From Clostridiales bacterium Firm_18 (GTDB lineage: Bacteria; Bacillota; Clostridia; Monoglobales; Firm-18), in the NCBI GenBank assembly GCA_001604215.1, contig LVAX01000092.1:72985-136984 (forward strand): DNA of 64,000 nucleotides, read 5' to 3'. Each line of letters starts with the position of its first letter. The stretch's first letter is position 1. The notes beneath the pieces are model-generated. The model was not told where the DNA came from and did not search any database. It was given only the letters and a program-made list of their open reading frames with translations. Positions 1 through 47,772 of this stretch are shown in pieces. The position numbers were made by a program, and so were the translations under genes.

Positions 1-1133
1 CAATAACAATGGTTTACGATGATGAAGGTTTTTTAGTGCCGGGAATTAATACTTCGAAATGTGTAAAATGTAATCAGTGTGTAAATGTTTGTCCTGCAAA
101 CAGTTTTACATCAAAAAATGACAATATTATAAGCAGTTATGCTTGTTGGAGCAACGATACTGAAAGCCGCATATCAAGTTCATCTGGGGGAATTTTTTCT
201 GTTTTGGCATCGTGGATATTTCAAAACAATGGTGTTGTTTATGGTGCTGCTTTTGATGAAAGCTTTCATGTTAAGCATGGTCGCGCAGAAAACATGAATG
301 AGCTTGAATTATTAAAGAAATCAAAATATATTCAAAGTGAAATGATATCGGTATATCCGATGATTAAAAAAGATTGTGAACAAGGGAAATTAGTGCTATT
401 TGTAGGCACTCCATGTCAGGTTTCTGCTCTTTATAATTATTTAGGATACGATTACGAAAAGCTATATACATGCGACTTAATATGTCACGGAGTCGGTTCG
501 ACCGGTTATTTTGTTGATTGTCTTGGTTATTTGCAGAAAAATTTTAAGTCCAAAGTAACCGAAGTGGTTTTTAGAGAAAAATCAAAAGGCTATAACAAGC
601 CACATTTAATAATCAGGTTTGAGAATGGTAGAATGTATAAACAATTCTTGTATTACAGCATATTTGGCCATTCCTTTACCAAATCTTTTTCTGTTCGCAA
701 ATCATGCATAGAATGCAAGTATGCTACTGTTCCCCGATTTGGAAACTTTACTTTAGGGGATTATAGTGGCAAGGTTTATGTAAATTTTAATTTCAATGAA
801 ATAAAACGAGGAATATCTACTTTATTGATAAATAATATGAAAGCACAATTAGTTTTTGAAGAAATTAGTGATAAAATATTCGCAAAAAAGGTTGATGTTG
901 ATTACATAATTACCACTTCAAATAGATTAAAAGGCATATCCCTTAAAACACTGGAAGAAAGAGATGAGTTTTTTGCTGAATATAAATCATTAGATGTAAA
1001 AGAAATAATCCAAAAATATGATATGCCAAGCAGAGAAGAAATAAGAAATTTCAAATATAGCGGTAAATGGAATGGTAGTGTCCTTCAGCTTATACATAAA
1101 ATCGTTTACAGAGTAAAAAGACATATTAGTTGA
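1..1133 (+). CDS. Coenzyme F420 hydrogenase/dehydrogenase beta-subunit-like Fe-S protein (5' partial)
   Basis: The frame is open to the window edge. A ferredoxin motif CVKCNQCVNVCP is followed by an FrhB-like C-terminal region. The gene sits at the end of a polysaccharide locus. Confidence 0.6.
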   Translation, partial: ITMVYDDEGFLVPGINTSKCVKCNQCVNVCPANSFTSKNDNIISSYACWSNDTESRISSSSGGIFSVLASWIFQNNGVVYGAAFDESFHVKHGRAENMNELELLKKSKYIQSEMISVYPMIKKDCEQGKLVLFVGTPCQVSALYNYLGYDYEKLYTCDLICHGVGSTGYFVDCLGYLQKNFKSKVTEVVFREKSKGYNKPHLIIRFENGRMYKQFLYYSIFGHSFTKSFSVRKSCIECKYATVPRFGNFTLGDYSGKVYVNFNFNEIKRGISTLLINNMKAQLVFEEISDKIFAKKVDVDYIITTSNRLKGISLKTLEERDEFFAEYKSLDVKEIIQKYDMPSREEIRNFKYSGKWNGSVLQLIHKIVYRVKRHIS

Positions 1134-1167
1134 TTGAAAATATGAAAAAGATACGGGGGGAATAATA

Positions 1168-2193
1168 TTGTTTAATAACAAGGTTTTATTAATAACAGGA
1201 GGAACAGGCTCTTTCGGAAATATTGTATTGGAGCGATTTGCCAACACCGATATAAAAGAAATACGCATTTTTTCAAGAGATGAGAAAAAGCAGGACGATA
1301 TGAGAAGGCATTATCAAAATGATAAAATCAAATATTATATTGGCGATGTGCGTGACCTGTCCAGCTTGAGAAATGCAATGCATAATGTTGATTATGTGTT
1401 TCATGCAGCAGCTTTAAAACAAGTACCATCCTGTGAATTTTTCCCTATTGAAGCGGTTAAAACAAATGTACTCGGTACAGACAACTTACTTAATGCCGCA
1501 ATTGAAGCCAATGTTAAAAAAGTGGTTTGCTTGTCAACAGATAAAGCGGCTTATCCCGTAAACGCAATGGGCATGTCAAAAGCGTTAATGGAAAAAACAT
1601 TTATTGCCAAATCCAGAACTGTTTCACCGGAAAAAACGCTTATTTGCGGAACAAGATACGGAAATGTCATGTGCTCACGCGGCTCCGTAATACCGCTTTT
1701 TATCGAACAGATTAAATCTGGAAAACCTCTTACCGTTACAGACCCTAAAATGACAAGGTTTATTATGAGCCTTGACGAAGCGGTTGAGCTTGTCGTTTAT
1801 GCATTTGAAAATGCCGAAAGCGGCGACATAATGGTTCAAAAAGCCCCATCATCCTATATCGGTGATTTGGCTTTGGCACTTAAAGAATTATTCCATGCCG
1901 ATAATAAAATCGAAGTTATCGGAACGCGGCACGGAGAAAAAATGTATGAAGTTCTTCTTACAAAGGAGGAGGCAGCAAAGGCCGTGGACTTAGGGAACTT
2001 TTTCAGAATACCTGCAGATAATCGGGATTTGAGCTATGAAAAATATCTTGAAAAAGGTTCGTATAAGATTACTTCTACCGAGGAATACAATTCCAACAAT
2101 ACTAAAATACTAAGTGTTGATGAGATTAAACATAAGTTATTACAGCTTGACGAAATAAAGAAGGAACTATCAAATTGGAGGAAAAGGAATTGA
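1168..2193 (+). CDS. capE: UDP-N-acetylglucosamine 4,6-dehydratase/5-epimerase, CapE/FnlA/WbjB type
   Basis: The N-terminus MFNNKVLLITGGTGSFGN and the 341-aa length are typical of CapE/FnlA. TTG start with a GGGGGGA SD upstream. Confidence 0.8.
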   Translation: MFNNKVLLITGGTGSFGNIVLERFANTDIKEIRIFSRDEKKQDDMRRHYQNDKIKYYIGDVRDLSSLRNAMHNVDYVFHAAALKQVPSCEFFPIEAVKTNVLGTDNLLNAAIEANVKKVVCLSTDKAAYPVNAMGMSKALMEKTFIAKSRTVSPEKTLICGTRYGNVMCSRGSVIPLFIEQIKSGKPLTVTDPKMTRFIMSLDEAVELVVYAFENAESGDIMVQKAPSSYIGDLALALKELFHADNKIEVIGTRHGEKMYEVLLTKEEAAKAVDLGNFFRIPADNRDLSYEKYLEKGSYKITSTEEYNSNNTKILSVDEIKHKLLQLDEIKKELSNWRKRN

Positions 2194-3302
2194 AAGTTTT
2201 AATAACAGGTGCCAACGGATTTATTGGCAAGCATTTGGTTTTGGGATTAAAAAACCTCAATTCGATAGAAATACTATCGTTTGATATTAATACACAGAAA
2301 AGCCTTTTAGATACCTATGCTTCAAAATGTGATTTTGTTTTTCATCTTGCAGGTGCAAACCGTCCCAAAGAGGAAGCGGAATTTATGAAAGTAAACTATG
2401 GCCTCACAGCAACTCTTTTGGGGCTGCTGAAAAAGCATAGAAATACCTGCCCTGTGATGGTTTCATCCTCAATTCAGGCAAGGCTTGACAACTCGTACGG
2501 AAAAAGCAAAAAGGCGGGGGAAGACTTAATGCTTGAATATGCGAAGGAAACGGGAGCAAAGGTTTTAATATACCAGTTCCCCAACGTTTTCGGGAAATGG
2601 TGCAAGCCAAATTACAACAGCGTTGTGGCAACATTTTGCCATAATATCGCAAATGATTTGCCTATAACAGTGAACGATTCGAATGCAATGCTAAGCCTTG
2701 TTTATATAGATGATGTGATTAGCGAGTTATTAAATGCGCTTAAAGGCAATCCAACTCAGGAGAACAGTTTTTTCTGCGGTATTAAACCGGTATATGAAAT
2801 TAAGCTCGGGGAAATAGTCGATTTACTGTATTCCTTCAAAGAAAGCAGAAACGACCTCACTGTTCCGAACATGGAGGATGCATTTACTAAAAAACTGTAT
2901 GCGACTTACCTAAGCTACTTGCCTGTGAATGGTTTTTCGTATCCTTTGAAAATGAATGTCGACAGCAGAGGCTCTTTTACGGAATTTATAAAAACGCCGG
3001 AGCGAGGGCAATTTTCTATAAACATATCAAAGCCGGGAATCGTCAAAGGCAATCATTGGCATCATACAAAGAACGAAAAATTTCTTGTGGTTAGCGGCAG
3101 GGGAGTTATTCGTTTCAGGAGGATTGACAGCAATGAGGTTTTAGAGTATTATGTAAGTGGGGATAGGCTTGAAGTTGTTGATATTCCTCCGGGTTATACC
3201 CACAATATAGAAAACCTTGGGGATTCCGATATGGTAACGGTTATGTGGGCTAATGAGCCGTTTAATCCGGAAAATACAGATACGTATGGGGAACCTGTGT
3301 GA
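2190..3302 (+). CDS. capF: CapF/FnlB-type bifunctional reductase/epimerase (SDR N-domain plus C-terminal cupin)
   Basis: KVLITGANGFIGKHL Rossmann motif and a C-terminal cupin-like region (GNHWHHTK...GYTHNIEN). The TTG at 2190 is preferred because a GGAGG lies 8 nt upstream; the ORF track starts at 2175. Overlaps the capE stop. Confidence 0.75.
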   Translation: MKVLITGANGFIGKHLVLGLKNLNSIEILSFDINTQKSLLDTYASKCDFVFHLAGANRPKEEAEFMKVNYGLTATLLGLLKKHRNTCPVMVSSSIQARLDNSYGKSKKAGEDLMLEYAKETGAKVLIYQFPNVFGKWCKPNYNSVVATFCHNIANDLPITVNDSNAMLSLVYIDDVISELLNALKGNPTQENSFFCGIKPVYEIKLGEIVDLLYSFKESRNDLTVPNMEDAFTKKLYATYLSYLPVNGFSYPLKMNVDSRGSFTEFIKTPERGQFSINISKPGIVKGNHWHHTKNEKFLVVSGRGVIRFRRIDSNEVLEYYVSGDRLEVVDIPPGYTHNIENLGDSDMVTVMWANEPFNPENTDTYGEPV

Positions 3303-3352
3303 GGGTTTATGCACAATAGCTCTAAAATTTTTTTTGGGGGGGTGATATGTGA

Positions 3353-4618
3353 ATGACGCAGGATTTTACCGATATGATATACTTGTTATCCTGTGGCGCT
3401 TTAGGTATTTGTCCTCAATTAGATCATGATATTAATTTTGATAAGATATACAGATTGGCTTGCGAACAGAACGTATGGGATATTGTTTTTTTAGCTGTCA
3501 AAAAAATGTATGAAAGCGGAAAGTTGAGCATTACTCCGGAATTATTCTCTAATTTGAAAGGACAGACAATTGCTGCGGTTCTAGCAAATACAAATCGGCT
3601 ATATTTAATTCATCAGCTGACAGATTCTTTTTTGCAAAAAGGAATAAGGTATTGCATATTAAAAGGCGAGACATTGTCTTACCTATACAATGATCATAAT
3701 TGCAGAATATCTAGCGATACGGATATTTTTATAAATAAAACTGATAAAGAGACCGCTATTGATGTATTGGAGCAACATGGCTATGTTGTAAAGCCGTTAA
3801 ACACAATATCAAACCAAATACATGCAATTCACCCGATAGCCGGTTTTATTGAGGTGCACCTTGCTTTATACAATGAAATTTCTGCTGATGTATGGTTTGA
3901 TAATAAAATATTAATTACGGAAGATTATAGATTAATTAAATGCGATGATGGAAAAGAAATCTTTGCTCTCGGAATAAATGACGGGTTAGTATTCTTAGCT
4001 TTGCATTATATTAAGCATTTTCTTTCACGCGGTGTTGGCATCAGACAGCTTATGGATTTGCTCCTGTATGTCAGAAAATACAAAAAAGATATCGATTGGG
4101 AAAGGTTTAACCAATTATTAGAACACTTAAACTATAAAAAGTTTTTTGATAATTCCATCGGTATCGGTGTTAAATATTTAAATATCAAAGAAGAAGATAT
4201 GCCTGAATATAGGAGAGATGACAGTATTATTGGAAGACTGCTCAGCGATATTGAAAGCGGTGGTGTTTTCGGGGGGAATGAGGATTCACGAATCGGATTT
4301 TCCTATAATTATACAAAAGAAAGATTCCACAGGTTTAAAAATGAAGATTACGATGTATATGTAAAAAAATGGTGGCGACCGAATGTTATTAAAGCAATAT
4401 TCCCAAGCGTGCGCAGCATTGCGGTTAAATTTCCGTATGTTAAAAAGACACCCCTTTTATACCCCGTCGCATGGATTCACAGGGCGATAAAACTGTTGAC
4501 GGGAATTATAAAAAAAGAAAAGTCCGTATACAAATATATAAATCCCCAAAAAGCTGTTGAAAACAACGAAACAATAAAAAAACGCATGGAGTTAATCCGT
4601 GAGCTTGATATGATATAA
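3353..4618 (+). CDS. Uncharacterised nucleotidyltransferase family protein (NTP_transf_5-like)
   Basis: 421 aa with overall resemblance to the uncharacterised nucleotidyltransferase family often found at the ends of EPS loci. G-rich SD upstream of the ATG. Confidence 0.45.
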   Translation: MTQDFTDMIYLLSCGALGICPQLDHDINFDKIYRLACEQNVWDIVFLAVKKMYESGKLSITPELFSNLKGQTIAAVLANTNRLYLIHQLTDSFLQKGIRYCILKGETLSYLYNDHNCRISSDTDIFINKTDKETAIDVLEQHGYVVKPLNTISNQIHAIHPIAGFIEVHLALYNEISADVWFDNKILITEDYRLIKCDDGKEIFALGINDGLVFLALHYIKHFLSRGVGIRQLMDLLLYVRKYKKDIDWERFNQLLEHLNYKKFFDNSIGIGVKYLNIKEEDMPEYRRDDSIIGRLLSDIESGGVFGGNEDSRIGFSYNYTKERFHRFKNEDYDVYVKKWWRPNVIKAIFPSVRSIAVKFPYVKKTPLLYPVAWIHRAIKLLTGIIKKEKSVYKYINPQKAVENNETIKKRMELIRELDMI

Positions 4619-4796: not shown

Positions 4797-5861
4797 GTGA
4801 ATTTTCTGTTGAGGGTCCTTACGAATAACCAAAGATTTTCGGCAGGTCATCCTGAATATAGGCGTGCCTATTTGCTGAATGTTGTGCTTGTCGGCATGTT
4901 CTGCACTTGTTTGATTTTTTCGGTGCTAAACTTATTTTTCACGGGGCAGACCGGGATTGTTATTCTGGAGCTTGGCGGGGCGGTATTTTCCCTTGTTATT
5001 TTTTTGTATTTCCATAAGACCGATAAAGTTAAATCCGCCACGTTATTTACGGTATTGCTGTTTACGGCGGTGCTGCTTGGGTTTATTACCCTTTCGCAAA
5101 ACTGCCATAATTCTCTTTTTTGGGTTAGCATATACCCGCCCATTGTGTATTTTATGCTTGGGAAAAAGAAAGGGCCTATACTAATGGGCTTGTTCTTGGC
5201 GTATCTTGTTTTGTTTTTCCTGCTGAACCGGATGCGCTGGGAGCCGGCGGGGTTTGATGTCGGCTATGTTATAAACGTATTAAGCTCTACGCTGGCGCTG
5301 ATGTGTGCAATTGCATATTTCGAACACAGCAGGGCGGAGTCGGCCAGGGTGCTTGAGAAAAAGAACGAAGAGCTTGAGCGGCTTACCGTAACCGATTATT
5401 TAACTGGCCTGTATAACAGGATTAAGTTGGATTCGGTGCTCAGCAAAGAGATTAATAAATCTATGTTCACTACATATACGTTTTCGCTCATTATGGCGGA
5501 TTTGGACTATTTTAAGCAAATCAACGACGAATACGGCCACGTTGTTGGCGACCGGGTTTTGTCCGATGTTGCCAATATTTTAAAAAACAACTGCAGGGAA
5601 AAGGATATTATCGGAAGATGGGGCGGGGAGGAATTTTTGATAATCTGCCCGGACACCGATATACAAGAGGCGCAAAGCCTGTCCGAAAGGCTGCTGGAAG
5701 AAGTAGCAAAATATGAATACAAGAACGGCAAGCATATGACGATAAGCTTCGGCGTTACCCAGTGCAGGAAGGGCGATACCTTTGATTCGGTTATAAAACG
5801 TGCTGATATTGCTATGTACAATGCAAAAGCCGGGGGACGGTGCCGGGTGGAAACTATATAA
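4797..5861 (+). CDS. Membrane-anchored diguanylate cyclase (GGDEF domain)
   Basis: Hydrophobic multi-TM N-terminal half. The C-terminal half has LTGLYNR, DLDYFKQINDEYGH and an RWGGEEF active-site motif. Confidence 0.85.
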   Translation: MNFLLRVLTNNQRFSAGHPEYRRAYLLNVVLVGMFCTCLIFSVLNLFFTGQTGIVILELGGAVFSLVIFLYFHKTDKVKSATLFTVLLFTAVLLGFITLSQNCHNSLFWVSIYPPIVYFMLGKKKGPILMGLFLAYLVLFFLLNRMRWEPAGFDVGYVINVLSSTLALMCAIAYFEHSRAESARVLEKKNEELERLTVTDYLTGLYNRIKLDSVLSKEINKSMFTTYTFSLIMADLDYFKQINDEYGHVVGDRVLSDVANILKNNCREKDIIGRWGGEEFLIICPDTDIQEAQSLSERLLEEVAKYEYKNGKHMTISFGVTQCRKGDTFDSVIKRADIAMYNAKAGGRCRVETI

Positions 5862-5864
5862 AAA

Positions 5865-5898
5865 AGGACGTATCCGATTTGGTGATGCGTCCTTTTTT
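5865..5898 (+). terminator. Rho-independent terminator of the GGDEF gene
   Basis: AGGACG...CGTCCT stem flanked by an A-run and followed by TTTTTT. Confidence 0.6.
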
Positions 5899-5902
5899 AA
5901 CA

Positions 5903-6023
5903 TATAGGAAATTGCGCAAAATCGCGCAATTTCACGCTCCGGCGGAATAAATCCGCCTACGCTTACGCTCACGCGGCGAGATGATGCGTTCCGGAAAGCG
6001 CTACGCGCCGGAACGCTTTATTT
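5903..6023 (+). repeat. Structured intergenic repeat, copy 1 of 4
   Basis: TATAGGAAATTGCGCAAAATCGCGCAATTTC...GGCGGAATAAATCCGCC...GCGTTCCGGAAAGCGCTACGCGCCGGAACGCTTTATTT. Three hairpins: 5910-5931, 5941-5957 and 5986-6016. Confidence 0.9.
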
Positions 6024-15141: not shown

Positions 15142-16265
15142 TGCTGAATGGTTTTAAGCAGTGCGGCGGCTTGTTTTAATTTTTCGGGGACAGGTATTGA
15201 CTGGGGGCATTTTTTAGCGCACTCGCCGCATTGTATGCAGCTTTGCGGGTCTCCTTCAGCCTCGCTGAGCAGCTTTGCAAATTCTTCTTTTGCATATTGC
15301 GTCAGGCCGTAAACTTTATGGAAGTTGTACAGCAAAAAAATCTTTGAAATTTGAATACCCATCGGGCAGGGCTGGCAATAGTCGCAGCCCGTGCAGTAAA
15401 GCCGGGATAATTCTTTTATTTGTTCCAGTGTATCGCTGATTTTTTTCCATTCCTCGCTTGAGAGTTCTTCGTTGCAGCGTGCGGCTGTTTCGACGTTTTC
15501 ATCCACCATTGCTTTGGAGGTCATTCCGGATAATGCGCAGCTTACGTTTTTATTTCCCAAGACAAACCGCAGCGCAATTTCCGGGGTGTCCTTTGCATTG
15601 GGGAGCAGTTTTTTTAAAGTATCCGACGGGGCGGCAAGGCGGCCGCCTGCGACAGGCCCCATTACAATAACGCCAAGCCCTTTGCTGCGGGCGTATTCAA
15701 TGGCGTCTTCGTTGCTCCGGTCCAAAAGGTTATACTGGCACAAAACCGTCTCAAAGGCGCCGGTGTCGATTATCTTTTTCATTATTTCGGGCTTGTCGTG
15801 GAAGGAAAAGCATTTGTGCGCAATCAGCCCTTTTTGCTTTGCCTTTTCCATGTTTTCAAGCACGTTAAGCTTTAAAACTTTGTTTTCAAAGCTTCCGTTA
15901 TCCAGCGAATGAAGATGGAAAAAATCTATGCAGTCCACATCAAGCCTTCTAAGCTGCTCTTCTAAGTAATACCAGAAATCATCCTCCCGCTCCACATTCC
16001 ACATTGGCACTTTGGTGGATACCTTAACCTTATCCTTATACCCTTTAATTGCTTTTCCGACTATGTATTGATTGTTTTCATGGCTGTAGGGCCATGCCGT
16101 GTCGATATAGTTTATGCCTTTTTTGAAGGCATGGTGTATGATGTCGATACATTCGTCTTCATCCATGTACCATTTGCCCTCTTTTTCATATTCCGGCAGG
16201 CGCATTGCGCCAAGGCCAAGGGCCGATATGTTAAATCCCGTGTTTCCTAACTTCCTGTAAATCAT
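15138..16265 (-). CDS. Aldo/keto reductase with C-terminal 4Fe-4S cluster domain
   Basis: MIYRKLGNTGFNISALGLGAMRL AKR N-terminus. C-terminal CTGCDYCQPCP and CIQCGECAKKCP. Confidence 0.8.
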   Translation of the reverse strand: MIYRKLGNTGFNISALGLGAMRLPEYEKEGKWYMDEDECIDIIHHAFKKGINYIDTAWPYSHENNQYIVGKAIKGYKDKVKVSTKVPMWNVEREDDFWYYLEEQLRRLDVDCIDFFHLHSLDNGSFENKVLKLNVLENMEKAKQKGLIAHKCFSFHDKPEIMKKIIDTGAFETVLCQYNLLDRSNEDAIEYARSKGLGVIVMGPVAGGRLAAPSDTLKKLLPNAKDTPEIALRFVLGNKNVSCALSGMTSKAMVDENVETAARCNEELSSEEWKKISDTLEQIKELSRLYCTGCDYCQPCPMGIQISKIFLLYNFHKVYGLTQYAKEEFAKLLSEAEGDPQSCIQCGECAKKCPQSIPVPEKLKQAAALLKTIQH

Positions 16266-16831
16266 ACGATATCTCCTCCGGTAATTTGTTTGCCTGCTTT
16301 TTGCATAGTTTGCGTGAGAAGATAAAAGGCCTCTTCGGGCGAATCAATTTTTTCCACGAGCCGCTCCATGGGACAGATATCCGTTTGCGGCCTGTTTAGT
16401 ATGTTGTCGGTTTCGGTGCCGAATTTGTATTTGATTTTGTGTTGTTTCAATACCTGCTCGGCCGGCTTGCTCATTATACGGCCGTAAACGCCCTCGGCCC
16501 GGCCCAGTACGCACAGCAGTGCGGCCGCTTTGCCGATTGTTTTATCCGCCAGTATTGCCCCCTTCATTAAATCAACCGAGCACAGCAGGGGATATACGCC
16601 TTTTTCATGGGATTTATATATTACGGTATCGTTTTTTATGATAAGACATGAGCATTGCTGCCTATGTAATTCGTCCGCTGCTTTTTTTAACTTATAGGAA
16701 ATTGCGCAAAATCCGCGCAATTTCGCGCTGCCGCGGAATGAATCCGCCTTCGCTTTCCTTCGCGGGGCGAGATGAGGCGTTCCGGAAAGTGTTACGAGCC
16801 GGAATGCTTTTTTATTTGTTTTGCAAGACAT
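16262..16831 (-). CDS. DUF1893 (TM1506-like) protein, N-terminus uncertain
   Basis: The core ILADKTIGKAAALL...CPMERL resembles the TM1506 family. The only SD-supported start (AAAGGAG, 8 nt, then the ATG at 16831) lies upstream of repeat copy 2, which would then be translated. Confidence 0.55.
   Translation of the reverse strand: MSCKTNKKAFRLVTLSGTPHLAPRRKAKADSFRGSAKLRGFCAISYKLKKAADELHRQQCSCLIIKNDTVIYKSHEKGVYPLLCSVDLMKGAILADKTIGKAAALLCVLGRAEGVYGRIMSKPAEQVLKQHKIKYKFGTETDNILNRPQTDICPMERLVEKIDSPEEAFYLLTQTMQKAGKQITGGDIV
16693..16817 (+). repeat. Structured intergenic repeat, copy 2 of 4
   Basis: Aligns end to end with copies 1, 3 and 4. It lies between two minus-strand genes, antisense to them. 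Confidence 0.9.
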
Positions 16832-17315
16832 GGTGTTTGCTCCTTTCACATGCTGTTACAATAAACGGTACTGCTGCAATCTGAATAAGCATGCCGGCAA
16901 ACCCGTTGACAAGCTGGGCTGATGCAAATGTCAAAAATGCGGGATTTGACAGGGCAAATAAAAACAGTACCGCTTTCCCCGAAATCAATGCCGTGACAAG
17001 CCTTAAATATCTGCTTTTAAATTTATATATTCCCAAAAACAGCCCGTATGCTCCGAATTCAACCGCAAGGCACGGCATGTTGGGAAAGAATGGTGGCATT
17101 CCTGTTGCAAAAGTGCTTATTATAGGTGTGGTTATTCCGACAACGGCCGAGTAGGGCGGGCTTAAAAAATATCCTGCAAGCAATACGGGAAGCTGCATGG
17201 GCAAAAGCTTCGATCCAAAACCGACAAAGTGAAACGCAATCGGCAATACAACGCCTATTGCAACAAACAGGCTCGCTGATAACAAGTGTTTAATATTAAC
17301 ATTATAATTTTTCAT
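16812..17315 (-). CDS. ECF-transporter S-component-like membrane protein
   Basis: 167 aa with about 5-6 TM segments. The LPMQLPVLLAGYFLSPP...GMPPFFP...AVEFGAYG pattern is typical of ECF substrate-capture subunits. No EcfA/T genes are nearby. Confidence 0.55.
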   Translation of the reverse strand: MKNYNVNIKHLLSASLFVAIGVVLPIAFHFVGFGSKLLPMQLPVLLAGYFLSPPYSAVVGITTPIISTFATGMPPFFPNMPCLAVEFGAYGLFLGIYKFKSRYLRLVTALISGKAVLFLFALSNPAFLTFASAQLVNGFAGMLIQIAAVPFIVTACERSKHHVLQNK

Positions 17316-33500: not shown

Positions 33501-34796
33501 TATGTAAAAAAGTACCTGGAGGAAAGGGGCAAAACCGCGACAAATGCCGAAGTCAACCGTCTTGTGGAGGGCTGCAGCGGGGTTAAAAAAACCACCGGAC
33601 AGCATCCGGGCGGCGTAATTATTTTGCCGAAAGGGTTTGACATTCATGATTTTTGTCCTATCCAGCATCCCGCCGACGACCGCAGCAAGGGAGTAATTAC
33701 TACTCATTTTGATTACCATTCCATCAGCGGGCGCCTTTTGAAGCTTGATATATTGGGGCATGATGATCCCACAATGATAAAAATGCTTGAAGATTTGACG
33801 GGGATTGACTCAAAAACCATTCCGCTTGACGATGAGGAAACAATGTCGCTTTTTACTTCCACTAAGGCTTTGGGGGTAACACCCGAAGAAATAGGCTCAC
33901 AGGTCGGAACTTTCGGGATACCCGAGCTTGGGACAAGGTTCGTGCGGCAGATGCTGGAGGAAACAAAGCCTGCAACCTTTTCCGAACTGGTGCGGATTTC
34001 GGGCCTTTCCCACGGCACCGATGTCTGGACAAACAATGCCCAGGAGCTTATTAAAAACAATATTGCCACGCTGCGCGAGGCAATATGTACCCGTGACGAT
34101 ATAATGACATTTCTTATATACAAGGGACTGCCGTCGAAAAACGCTTTCGATATTATGGAGCGAGTCCGAAAGGGCAAAGGCCTTACCGATTCGGACGAAG
34201 AGCTTATGAAGAAATATAATATACCCGATTGGTATATCGCCTCGTGCAACAAGATAAAATACATGTTCCCGAAGGCGCATGCGGTTGCATATATAACAAG
34301 CGCGCTTCGGATTGCGTGGTATAAGGTTCACAAGCCCCTTGAATTTTATCTTGCGTATTTTACGGTGCGTGCGGATGAATTTGATGCGGAGATTATGTGC
34401 GATGCCGAAACTGCCAAAAAGAAAAAACGCGAGCTTGAGGGCCTGCAGGGGACGGAATTGTCCCCAAAGGATAAAAATGTCTTAACAATACTTGAAATAG
34501 TAAACGAAATGTATGCAAGGGGTATAAAATTTGTTCCGGTGGATATACATAAATCACATGCCAAGCGTTTTTTGGACTCCGGCGGCTGCATACTGCCCCC
34601 GCTTTGCGCCATTGCCGGCCTGGGCGGCTCGGTTGCCGATACCATTGTGGAGGCAAGGGAAAAGACGCCCTTTGATTCGATGGAGGATTTGCGAAGCAGG
34701 ACGAGCATAAGCAAAACGGTGGTGGATCTGATGAAAAAACAAGGCTGCTTGGGTGATATGCCCGAAAGCAATCAAATAAGCTTTTTTAATTTATAG
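30594..34796 (+). CDS. polC: DNA polymerase III PolC-type
   Basis: 1400 aa with a PHP domain, the exonuclease motif VIFDIETTG and a C-terminal NQISFF tail. The TAG stop lies inside repeat copy 3. Confidence 0.95.
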   Translation: MGMSLADFFSRTDSTMLRDAQVVDVSAHKEKREINVTARFDKLAAFSDIKGMQSQISSDYALNKVIINPRYPKELFGPDFLGNLTEYISEKHPVVMSVLAGACADYTDGIFTVTLQNNGIETLSEIGFAKIASRIIKEQFGTDVKVEIKVQSETFEEYERKKEEKVKKIESTKTEKPKDENPVVFGKEIKSGNFDKISRINETSGNVLLQGELFKKDIDARETRNGKYIVTFDITDYEGSITCKLFGIEKKDYLRLFERLKKGVNVAVRGEAQYDKYAREVLVLAKDINIVSKKTRCDNAPKKRVELHLHTKMSFMDAMSDVTEIVKKAQEWGHKAIAITDHGVVQAFPDSVKGIGDDFKVIFGVEAYLIDLGRPIAFNTNGQSASDNVVIFDIETTGFSPEKDRIIEIGAVKIKNGQIADRFSSFVNPQMPISDKISRLTGITDDMVSGAPVIETVLEQFVDFCGDAVLVAHNAAFDMGFIKANAKRQGMDFSPAYIDTVEMARGALPELESHKLNVVAQALGVSLQGHHRAVNDAEATAQIYLKLAGLAKVKSVDELNEAFEKEGSFKEKKYYHAVIIAKNKKGLKNLYKIITASHLNYFYKKPCVPKSLYFRHMEGLIIGTACEQGELYQAILSGASSKQLGKIVRMYDYLEIQPLGNNEFLIRDGVVKSRDELIEINKKIIELGDYYKKPVVATCDVHFLDPHDSIYRAILMAGQGYSEPDLQPPLYLRTTEEMLAEFDYLPPGKAYEIVVENTNKIADMCEKMKPVPDGTFPPVMGNSKEEIINMCREKAFRIYGNPLPEIVESRMNKELAAINKYGFSVMYLIAQRLVRKSNDDGYSVGSRGSVGSSFVAFLCDITEVNALPPHYVCGSCKYSEFITDGSVGSGIDMQDKDCPKCGKKLQRDGHDIPFETFLGFEGDKEPDIDLNFSGEYQATAHKYTEELFGKGNVFRAGTISTLADKMAYGYVKKYLEERGKTATNAEVNRLVEGCSGVKKTTGQHPGGVIILPKGFDIHDFCPIQHPADDRSKGVITTHFDYHSISGRLLKLDILGHDDPTMIKMLEDLTGIDSKTIPLDDEETMSLFTSTKALGVTPEEIGSQVGTFGIPELGTRFVRQMLEETKPATFSELVRISGLSHGTDVWTNNAQELIKNNIATLREAICTRDDIMTFLIYKGLPSKNAFDIMERVRKGKGLTDSDEELMKKYNIPDWYIASCNKIKYMFPKAHAVAYITSALRIAWYKVHKPLEFYLAYFTVRADEFDAEIMCDAETAKKKKRELEGLQGTELSPKDKNVLTILEIVNEMYARGIKFVPVDIHKSHAKRFLDSGGCILPPLCAIAGLGGSVADTIVEAREKTPFDSMEDLRSRTSISKTVVDLMKKQGCLGDMPESNQISFFNL

Positions 34797-34913
34797 GAAA
34801 TTGCGCAAAATCCGTGCAATTTCACGCTCCGGCGGAATGAATCCGCCTACGCTTACGCTCGCGCGGCGAGCGGTAGCGTTCGGGAAAGCGCTACGCGCCC
34901 GAACGCTTAATTT
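34792..34913 (+). repeat. Structured intergenic repeat, copy 3 of 4
   Basis: Full-length copy with a compensatory C-G to G-C swap in hairpin 3 and a G-U in hairpin 1. Confidence 0.9.
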
Positions 34914-47626: not shown

Positions 47627-47650
47627 GGAAATACCCCATTTTTTAAAATT

Positions 47651-47772
47651 TATTGGAAATTGCGCAAAATTCGCGCAATTTCAACGCTTCGGCGGAGTGA
47701 ATCCGCCTACGCTTTCCCTCGCGGGGCGCAATGTTGCGTTCCGGAAAGCGCTACGCGCCGGAACGCTTTATT
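47651..47772 (+). repeat. Structured intergenic repeat, copy 4 of 4
   Basis: TATTGGAAATTGCGCAAAATTCGCGCAATTTC...GCGTTCCGGAAAGCGCTACGCGCCGGAACGCTTTATT. Confidence 0.9.

Follow-up and report, generated by a model that had tools for sequence, protein, structure and literature searches.

The window, a 64-kb stretch of DNA analysed here as a whole, contains four copies of a short, hairpin-rich element which, from comparison of its copies, we read as members of a lineage-specific, non-coding and non-autonomous mobile DNA repeat family with an oriented, T-tract-targeted insertion; we put the probability of this reading at roughly 80%. Insertions at gene ends, arrays, internally deleted variants, contigs that break off inside the element and its absence in relatives all speak for mobile DNA. 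We class the element as a new family within a known kind, the small bacterial interspersed mobile repeats. T-tract and terminator targeting is unusually clear for this kind of repeat: here a small repeat would choose its target, the position 3′ of a T-tract, with single-base resolution and regenerate this target itself. This T-tract targeting and target regeneration explain why the element is associated with terminators and why it forms tandem arrays.

All four copies lie on the + strand of the window and are 80-99% identical, and mean column identity across the conserved unit is 83% in an alignment of the four regions with their flanks. The 16-nt core of the first hairpin (H1) has four exact matches, all on the + strand, and for a 31-nt pattern of the last hairpin (H3) the number of matches expected by chance is zero. 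Thirteen distinct copies were used to build a covariance model (R1), with which the window copies score 146-161 bits (E 1e-46 to 1e-51); a scan of both strands of the 64 kb with this model, filters off, returned no further credible copy. Alignment and covariance-model scan thus confirm the four near-identical plus-strand copies announced by the sequence-only reading and place them where it had put them, except that the conserved unit starts ~4-10 nt further left, at AAYTTATAGG (Table 1).

Table 1. Element copies, their hairpins, their insertion sites and associated genes in the window
Feature	Position	Strand	Remarks
Copy 1	5899-6023	+	158.8 bits; between convergent genes
Copy 1 left end	5899-5908	+	AACATATAGG
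Copy 1 H1	5908-5933	+	
Copy 1 H2	5941-5957	+	
Copy 1 middle hairpin	5960-5978	+	
Copy 1 H3	5986-6016	+	
Copy 1 tail	6017-6023	+	TTTATTT
Copy 2	16689-16816	+	146.2 bits; antisense, within 5′ end of a - strand gene
Copy 2 H1	16698-16724	+	
Copy 2 H2	16732-16748	+	
Copy 2 middle hairpin	16751-16769	+	
Copy 2 H3	16777-16807	+	
Copy 2 tail		+	TTTTTTATT
Copy 3	34788-34913	+	161.4 bits; polC 3′ end
Copy 3 H1	34797-34823		G-T wobble
Copy 3 H2	34831-34847		
Copy 3 middle hairpin	34850-34868		
Copy 3 H3	34876-34906		GGG/CCC variant
Copy 4	47645-47772	+	157.6 bits; galT on one side, nitroreductase gene on the other
Copy 4 H1	47656-47682		
Copy 4 H2	47691-47707		
Copy 4 middle hairpin	47710-47728		
Copy 4 H3	47736-47766		
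Copy 4 tail			TTTATT
GGDEF gene	4797-5861		upstream of the host hairpin
Host hairpin	5866-5892	+	GGACGTATC...GATGCGTCC; RNA fold -14.0 kcal/mol; ends directly at the T-run
T6 tract, target of copy 1	5893-5898	+	with the host hairpin, an intrinsic-terminator-like site
T7 tract 5′ of copy 2	16682-16688	+	A-run in DUF1893 codons 7-8 (KK) on the - strand
T6 tract 5′ of copy 3	34782-34787	+	two Phe codons, conserved PolC C-terminus
T6 tract 5′ of copy 4	47639-47644	+	13 nt past galT stop
DUF1893/TM1506 gene	16262-16832	-	RBS GAAAGGAG; ATG 16832-16830

The unit, of ~120-128 nt and about 50% GC, is laid out as 5′-AAYTTATAGG, H1, H2, a middle hairpin, H3 and CGC-T(2-6)-ATT-3′; AAYTTATAGG-H1 makes up its left end and H3-CGCTTTATT its right end, H1 being set in by 9 nt on the left and H3 by 0-9 nt on the right. 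H1 has 10 bp (GAAATTGCGC / GCGCAATTTC, loop of 6-7 nt), and H2 pairs GGCGGA with TCCGCC around a loop of 5 nt, with a C-C mismatch at its base in copy 2. H3, whose 5′ arm GCGTTCCGG is unrelated in sequence to the GAAATTGCGC of H1, is closed by CCGGAACGC after a loop of 13 nt; its 9-bp stem counts six G-C pairs and is followed directly by TTTATT(T). H1, H2, H3 and the T-rich tail were all part of the initial three-hairpin description and hold, but the hairpins number four. Indeed, the segment between H2 and H3, which had been reported to come in two variants, does exist in two forms (CGC..CGC-TCGC-GCG-GCG versus CGC..CCC-TCGC-GGG-GCG) and is itself the fourth hairpin, the two forms differing by a compensated G-C/C-G swap.

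H3 with its T-rich tail looks like an intrinsic terminator. A simple terminator scan left it uncalled, since its loop of 13 nt exceeds the limit of 8 set in the scan. The 4-6 nt 5′ of H3 differ between copies, and in a subfamily of five loci (L009, L014, L016, L020 and L113a) the 5′ arm of H3 is replaced by GCGCTTTTGG, resulting in a different, perfect small hairpin, GCGCTTT/AAAGCGC. Element segments are found in mosaic combinations. Indels shift the reading frames from one copy to another, so that the element cannot be a gene.

The element belongs to an uncultured member of the Clostridia that forms spores. The window (~44% GC) encodes PolC, SpoIIGA, sigma-E/G-like factors, SpoIIR, a SleB-like enzyme and an SLH protein, and also holds the usual polC-rimP-nusA-infB-truB-ribF neighbourhood. 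The 400 C-terminal residues of PolC share at most 79% identity with any species-representative genome, the closest relatives being uncultured metagenome-assembled genomes labelled ‘Eubacteriales’, ‘Bacillota’ or ‘Clostridiales’, and the genes of the window recur on many short metagenome contigs. The exact H1 pattern occurs on 17 JGI metagenome contigs, 16 of which carry the element. Contigs from the same organism provided ~19 additional copies, and 18 distinct full-length copies were assembled into an alignment (A6) in which pairwise identity ranges from 80 to 99% (mean 88%).

Outside this organism, the exact 26-nt H1 pattern has no match in 185,579 species-representative genomes, a set that does not include the host's own genome, nor in viral contigs; blastn gave no match in plasmids and phages, and a covariance-model scan of the polC regions of the 80 closest genomes detected no copy. 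One weak match (L040, E 0.017) turned out to be a bidirectional terminator with an H1-like hairpin, near which a 30-nt stretch resembles the left end of the element; neither resemblance is significant. Among conspecific contigs no empty site was found at the nucleotide level, which counts against the mobile-repeat reading: all public contigs with the flanking genes hold the element and give no sign of recent movement, and copy 4 is identical in the six public contigs (6/6) that carry this galT.

Two internally deleted variants were recovered, one reduced to H1 and H2 (L007) and one in which H1 is fused to the 3′ half of H3 (L008). Six contigs break off inside the element (L009, L012, L016, L020, L108 and L109), as a multi-copy repeat causes in short-read assembly. 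Another contig, L003, jumps within H3 from the copy 4 locus to the L019 locus and is an assembly chimera or a recombinant.

The left junctions carry the main evidence on target choice. Of 18 independent left junctions, 17 have a run of 4-9 T directly before the 5′ end of the element. In most of them the T-run is directly followed by A or AA and then by YTTATAGGAAATTGCGC (YTTATAGG), while a few extra bases separate T-run and element in L014 and L016. Judging from these junctions, the orientation of insertion is fixed and the element lands directly 3′ of an oligo-T tract. In eight junctions, or ten with a tolerance of 3 nt, the T-run is where a stable GC hairpin of the host ends, and the combination of hairpin and T-run identifies these sites as intrinsic terminators; the case of copy 1, downstream of a GGDEF gene, is detailed in Table 1.

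Arrays obey the same rule. They comprise two copies in L011 and L111 and three in L113, always head-to-tail and in the same orientation throughout, with T4-9(A/AA) 5′ of every member. At the array junction (...GAACGC-TTTTTT-AACTTATAGG...) the next copy follows right after the T-tract of the H3 of the previous one. The 3′ end of the element thus recreates its own target, hence the tandem arrays.

Most of the T-tracts used are T-tails of intrinsic terminators, and the majority of copies are therefore found directly downstream of a gene with the same orientation: this is the case for 12 of the 17 scorable copies, five others being antisense to flanking genes (copy 2, L010/L015, L021, L023 and L111). 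The + orientation shared by the four window copies is accounted for in the same way, because insertion occurs 3′ of T-runs, terminator T-runs are on the coding strand and most genes of the window are on the + strand. Within the window, GC skew at third codon positions is positive for both + and - strand genes from 4.8 to 55 kb, the + strand averaging ~+0.09, and all four copies are on this G-rich, leading-sequence strand. Metagenome contigs give no consistent sign of a replication-strand bias, skew being positive in 5 of 14 contigs oriented by the element, with a mean of ~0. The sequence-only reading had named a plain DNA repeat, with copies in random orientation and non-compensatory mutations, as the outcome that would refute it. 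The traits of a mobile repeat found here come near to this outcome, with one difference: orientation is not random but fixed relative to the T-tract.

T-tracts inside genes are hit as well, as two insertions show. PolC proteins of 10 relatives end with ...(T/S)(F/L)(F/L)*, encoded by ACNTTTTTT-TAR/TGA (ACN-TTT-TTT-TAR/TGA). In the window polC, the element follows AGC-TTT-TTT, the native stop is lost and the C-terminus FF* has become FFNL*, the present stop TAG (34794-34796) being located inside copy 3. As PolC of the relatives ends FF* on TTTTTT, the T-run belongs to host DNA. On the opposite strand, a DUF1893/TM1506 gene with a good RBS has received copy 2 in frame, as 126 nt inserted behind codon 8: eight native codons, ending in Lys-Lys (an A-run, hence a T-run on the + strand, so that the T-tract rule applies here too), are followed by 42 element codons without any stop and at once by the Pfam domain (PF08973, residues 57-182 of the 195-aa ORF).

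According to the mobile-repeat reading, landing behind a terminator would be harmless to the upstream gene, whose terminator signal would then be replaced by H3 and its T-tract. This T-tract could in turn serve as the next target and give rise to arrays. We suppose that the element is moved in trans, by an enzyme whose gene lies in another part of the genome.

The alternative that survives best, although we judge it unlikely, is that the element is a multi-copy structured small RNA, or a terminator or RNA-stability module, selected in the plus sense, its dispersal being secondary. The conservation of the hairpins is certainly strong. In the 18 copies, standard pairs fill 98.7% of pair cells; shuffles reach 95.8%, and sliding the partners lowers the share to 32-54%. 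Changes on both sides are seen in three pairs: a middle-hairpin pair (G-C/C-G, 6:12), an H3 pair (C-G/G-C, 6:9) and, in one copy, an H3 pair going from G-C to A-U. Variable columns are less frequent in stems (20/68) than among unpaired positions (31/50; Fisher p = 6.5e-4), and therefore the hairpins are constrained. The compensated C-G to G-C change in H3 of copy 3 and the G-T wobbles in H3 of copy 2 and H1 of copy 3, on which the claim of selection on a plus-sense RNA had been built, are all present. This alternative is also favoured by G-T cells outnumbering A-C cells on the + strand, by the terminator-like aspect of H3 and its U-rich tail, by the frequent location downstream of a co-oriented gene (12/17), and by a fold z-score better on the + than on the - strand.

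Conserved and compensated hairpins are thus established, but the step from them to selection on plus-sense RNA does not stand. On the + strand, 15 G-T cells are found for 5 A-C cells, with A-C counter-examples in L014, L015, L111b and L113a; the cells reduce to ~10 versus 5 independent events, an asymmetry which is not significant (one-sided binomial p = 0.15). Unpaired columns display no transition bias (8 vs 8). Moreover, an excess of G-T would fit equally well a hairpin formed in single-stranded DNA of the top strand. Fold z-scores are -5.2 for RNA and -4.9 for DNA of the + strand and -3.5 for RNA of the - strand, and both strands, whether RNA or DNA, fold far better than shuffles. Processes acting on DNA, namely quasipalindrome template switching or exchange among copies, can produce compensated arm changes as well. 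The CG/GC variant of H3 occurs on three different element backgrounds, which suggests that it has spread by inter-copy exchange or templated arm correction and not by repeated selection on RNA. Such strong hairpin conservation could nevertheless reflect a host function instead of the needs of transposition.

Other features fit RNA genes poorly: five copies are antisense to flanking genes, one copy is translated within a protein of the opposite strand, arrays of two to three copies and internally deleted copies occur, no conserved promoter is found and the orthologous site of relatives is empty. The sequence-only reading could assign the element to no RNA family, and Rfam agrees, at its gathering threshold as well as permissively. 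With Rfam 15 at gathering threshold, the whole window yields a tRNA-Arg only; at E<=10, the best match of copy 4 reaches 18.5 bits (RmaA, whose gathering score is 57), and the IS605-orfB and omega-RNA families do not match the element. Nothing here demonstrates a new RNA gene, and we see in the element no evidence for a new class of regulatory RNA.

Returning to the mobile repeat, the two ends of the element inform on the type of enzyme that could mobilise it. The alignment A6 reveals no terminal inverted repeats, since AAYTTATAGG... at one end and ...GAACGCTTTATT at the other are not reverse complements, and the flanks of 18 loci contain no copy-specific direct repeats beyond a generic T/A-richness. 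The right end is either TTTTTT or TTTATT; it varies with the element subfamily, as defined by the spacer 5′ of H3, and not with the locus, and therefore it is a part of the element and not a target duplication. Similarly, most copies have YTTAT in front of AGGAAATT and about half have TTTAT behind H3, both as invariant family features and not as locus-specific duplications. The T-richness of both junctions leaves the boundaries open by up to ~3 nt, so that a few T may have been duplicated.

The lack of inverted repeats and of duplication, the polar insertion at a fixed oligonucleotide and the hairpins near both ends designate an HUH-type enzyme as candidate. That the mobilising enzyme would be a single-strand transposase of this type (IS200/IS605-like or IS91-like) is the likeliest option among enzyme kinds but a tentative proposal, with the odds somewhat against it. 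An IS605 that inserts at TTTAA has been documented (PMC11043419), and PATEs are miniature elements derived from IS200/IS605 (PMC3119063). With these systems the element shares the absence of terminal inverted repeats and target duplication, hairpins near both ends and polar insertion 3′ of a fixed short target, 4-5 nt in IS200/IS605 and a T-tract here. On the other hand, several observations count against the IS200/IS605 option in particular. Left-end and right-end hairpins are normally alike in this family, where one TnpA binds both, whereas H1 and H3 are dissimilar; the bases 5′ of H3 are variable, without a conserved ‘guide’ sequence; and no replication-strand bias was detected in the contigs. 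Against the mobile-repeat reading as a whole, no autonomous partner was found: the 64-kb window encodes no transposase, and no cognate tnpA/tnpB element was found in it or beside any fetched copy. The only transposase gene beside metagenome copies is an IS4-type DDE gene located 1.4 kb from the L011 array, rejected as partner since its flanks and ends share nothing with the element. If found, the mobilising enzyme could add a T-tract-specific member to the repertoire of single-strand transposases.

A bolder reading, which we consider improbable, would see here an undescribed mode of mobility: homing to terminator T-tracts in one polarity, free of inverted repeats and target duplication and with a replacement terminator carried along, by an enzyme class new to such elements (a novel HUH enzyme or an RNA-mediated system). 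Related ‘terminator-hopping’ families would then exist in other uncultured Clostridia, the weak L040 resemblance included.

Three further explanations appear far less probable. In a retro-mobile scheme, a - strand transcript ending in an A-run would be reverse-transcribed in trans, by the enzyme of a group II intron or another reverse transcriptase, from a nicked T-tract as primer, like a SINE/LINE at TTTT/AA. Read on the - strand, every copy does end with ...CCTATAARTT followed by A5-9 of variable length, the T(n)/AA insertion site resembles a priming site, and group IIC introns home to terminator hairpins. However, the target duplications typical of target-primed insertion are absent from the flanks, no reverse transcriptase is encoded in the window and no bacterial precedent is known. 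The 5′-truncated copies expected in the - reading are also missing, the truncated variants L007 and L008 keeping the H1 end.

Equally hard to sustain is an REP/BIME- or REPIN-type element mobilised by a RAYT. GC-rich extragenic palindromes, mosaic composition, arrays and location near gene 3′ ends would suit it, and RAYTs are HUH enzymes (PMC3333891, PMC3337134), as proposed here. Yet an REP is a single palindrome of 20-40 nt with a conserved GTAG/CGTC-type tag and a REPIN an inverted doublet of the same palindrome, whereas the present unit of 125 nt has four different hairpins in a fixed order, forms arrays that are head-to-tail and not inverted, and has no RAYT-like gene in its window. Finally, a classical MITE derived from a DDE insertion sequence, moved via terminal inverted repeats with target-site duplication, would agree with the small size, the many dispersed non-coding intergenic copies, the absence from relatives and the DDE gene near the L011 array, but is largely refuted by ends that are not inverted repeats, by the lack of any copy-specific direct repeat (the T-rich right end following the subfamily), by a polarity to the T-tract unexpected for a symmetric element and by the dissimilar flanks of that transposase gene.

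As a mobile repeat of this kind, the element has several counterparts. The closest in kind are bcr1, SPRITE and the IS200/IS605-derived miniature elements considered above. The first of these, bcr1, one of the group A ‘Bacillus cereus repeats’, is a ~155-bp non-coding, interspersed and lineage-restricted repeat of Firmicutes that behaves as a mobile element, with TTTAT flanks, predicted stem-loops maintained by compensatory changes and no identified transposase (PMC3184786, PMC6542083). In the element, YTTAT similarly lies just within the left end and TTTAT comes behind H3. Compared by description only, the two differ in host (Clostridia versus Bacilli) and in fold, four hairpins in a row versus a two-arm cruciform; furthermore, the TTTAT-like motifs do not behave here as a copy-specific duplication, and the precise abutment to T-tracts and terminators is a feature we did not find reported for bcr1. 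The pneumococcal SPRITE is a repeat of ~105 nt with a predicted RNA stem and a U-rich tract, enriched near gene 3′ ends and between convergent genes; it has AAAA/TTTT ends, no established target duplication and no insertion-sequence partner (PMC3049150). The element resembles it as a terminator-like Firmicute repeat for which no such partner was found. SPRITE has 28% GC and a single 18-bp duplex, compared with ~50% GC and four hairpins here; the element further differs in its head-to-tail arrays and in having a defined T-tract junction at only one of its sides.

More distant systems share single aspects with it. Group IIC introns insert in one orientation just downstream of intrinsic-terminator hairpins, possibly in tandem. 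Oriented terminator-associated sites and tandem copies are common to both, but the element, of 125 nt, has no ribozyme domains, no GUGYG...AY ends and no reverse transcriptase. Rickettsia palindromic elements insert in frame into protein-coding genes without destroying them. They are palindromic repeats of ~100-150 nt (PMC3184786), and the 42 residues added by copy 2 to the DUF1893 protein, together with the two added by copy 3 to PolC, recall their behaviour. Unlike them, the element is mostly intergenic and associated with terminators, and both phylum and sequence are unrelated.

For annotation, the element should be masked as a repeat in this lineage. It breaks short-read assemblies, makes chimeric contigs and yields false or altered gene calls, as for the 42 residues added to the DUF1893 protein and the changed C-terminus of PolC. 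Such calls have entered public data. When protein libraries were searched with six-frame translations of the element, a first search returned only the DUF1893 fusion, recorded there as a protein (P0001, P0002). An exhaustive search gave, besides five unrelated tandem repeats that were discarded (P0004, P0006-P0009), two more array loci (P0003, P0005).

In the window, the element has modified two host proteins, at 34794-34796 in PolC and within 16689-16832 in the predicted DUF1893/TM1506 protein. Where PolC of relatives has the conserved end FF*, the C-terminus encoded in the window reads FFNL*. In the DUF1893/TM1506 protein, conceptual translation predicts a 42-residue insertion after residue 8, which would be encoded by the element itself.

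Element copies also coincide with places where contigs join or diverge. In L003, a contig of ERZ3460576, the galT locus is fused to a DUF4432 locus, and comparison of this junction with the fetched locus L019 and with window 47736-47772 places the switch point within H3. The junction is either the product of a real recombination between two element copies or an assembly chimera formed through the repeat at 3x coverage. Two further loci, L010 and L015, which come from two metagenomes, agree in their left flank, which lies upstream of rpsP on the opposite strand, but differ in element subfamily and in right flank. This difference could reflect a strain-level rearrangement or replacement at an element copy, or it could be an assembly artefact.

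A mosaic repeat other than the element is found just after the polC 3′ end in L040, a locus of the MAG Bacillota bacterium UR.bin39. Its far end, read on the minus strand as CTTTTTT-ATGTGATAGGAAATTACGCCAAAAT, is similar to the left junction of the element, and near it lies a perfect 28-nt palindrome, T8-GAAACTCAGGAATTACGCCA/TGGCGTAATTCCTGAGTTTC-A8, with an H1-like hairpin. The mosaic repeat may represent a family distantly related to the element, but statistically the match is weak (E 0.02-0.9). Another lookalike lies in an ENA ERZ4903189 contig from another organism (L114, 5054-5606), where GC-rich units of 105 nt are repeated in tandem. Gene callers annotate this array as a ‘protein’ of 310 aa (P0006), whose repeat peptide is weakly similar (E 5e-5) to the translated element. 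Since the covariance model built from 13 element copies gives only a weak match on this array (E 0.008), the two are probably unrelated. In the locus L011, an IS4-type transposase gene lies about 1.4 kb from a two-copy element array, with a glycosyltransferase gene in between; comparison of the flanks of this transposase gene with the element revealed no similarity.

Both ends of the window are of low GC content. Directly after tRNA-Arg(CCT), GC drops to 37-38%, all genes switch to the minus strand and the third-position GC skew is reversed (55017-64000). This stretch looks like an island acquired horizontally at the tRNA gene; no integrase was recognised in the window. The left end (1-4000, GC 36%) encodes polysaccharide-biosynthesis enzymes and is probably a variable surface-polysaccharide locus.

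Features at the window ends and in two fetched loci
Feature	Sequence	Position	Strand	Remark
Polysacc_synt_2	window	within 1-4000		
Epimerase-type protein	window	within 1-4000		
F420-hydrogenase-beta-like Fe-S protein	window	within 1-4000		
tRNA-Arg(CCT)	window	55017-55093		
Rifampin ADP-ribosyltransferase (Arr)	window	55174-55587	-	
HTH regulator	window	within 55017-64000	-	
BlaI/MecI-type repressor	window	59039-59407	-	adjoins DUF4825 protein
DUF4825 protein	window		-	adjoins BlaI/MecI-type repressor
HNH protein	window	within 55017-64000	-	
Type I restriction R subunit	window	61645-63879	-	
IS4-type DDE transposase gene	L011	746-2026	+	Pfam DDE_Tnp_1, E 6e-13
Mosaic repeat	L040	7139-7409		
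Mosaic repeat, second copy	L040	2413-2462
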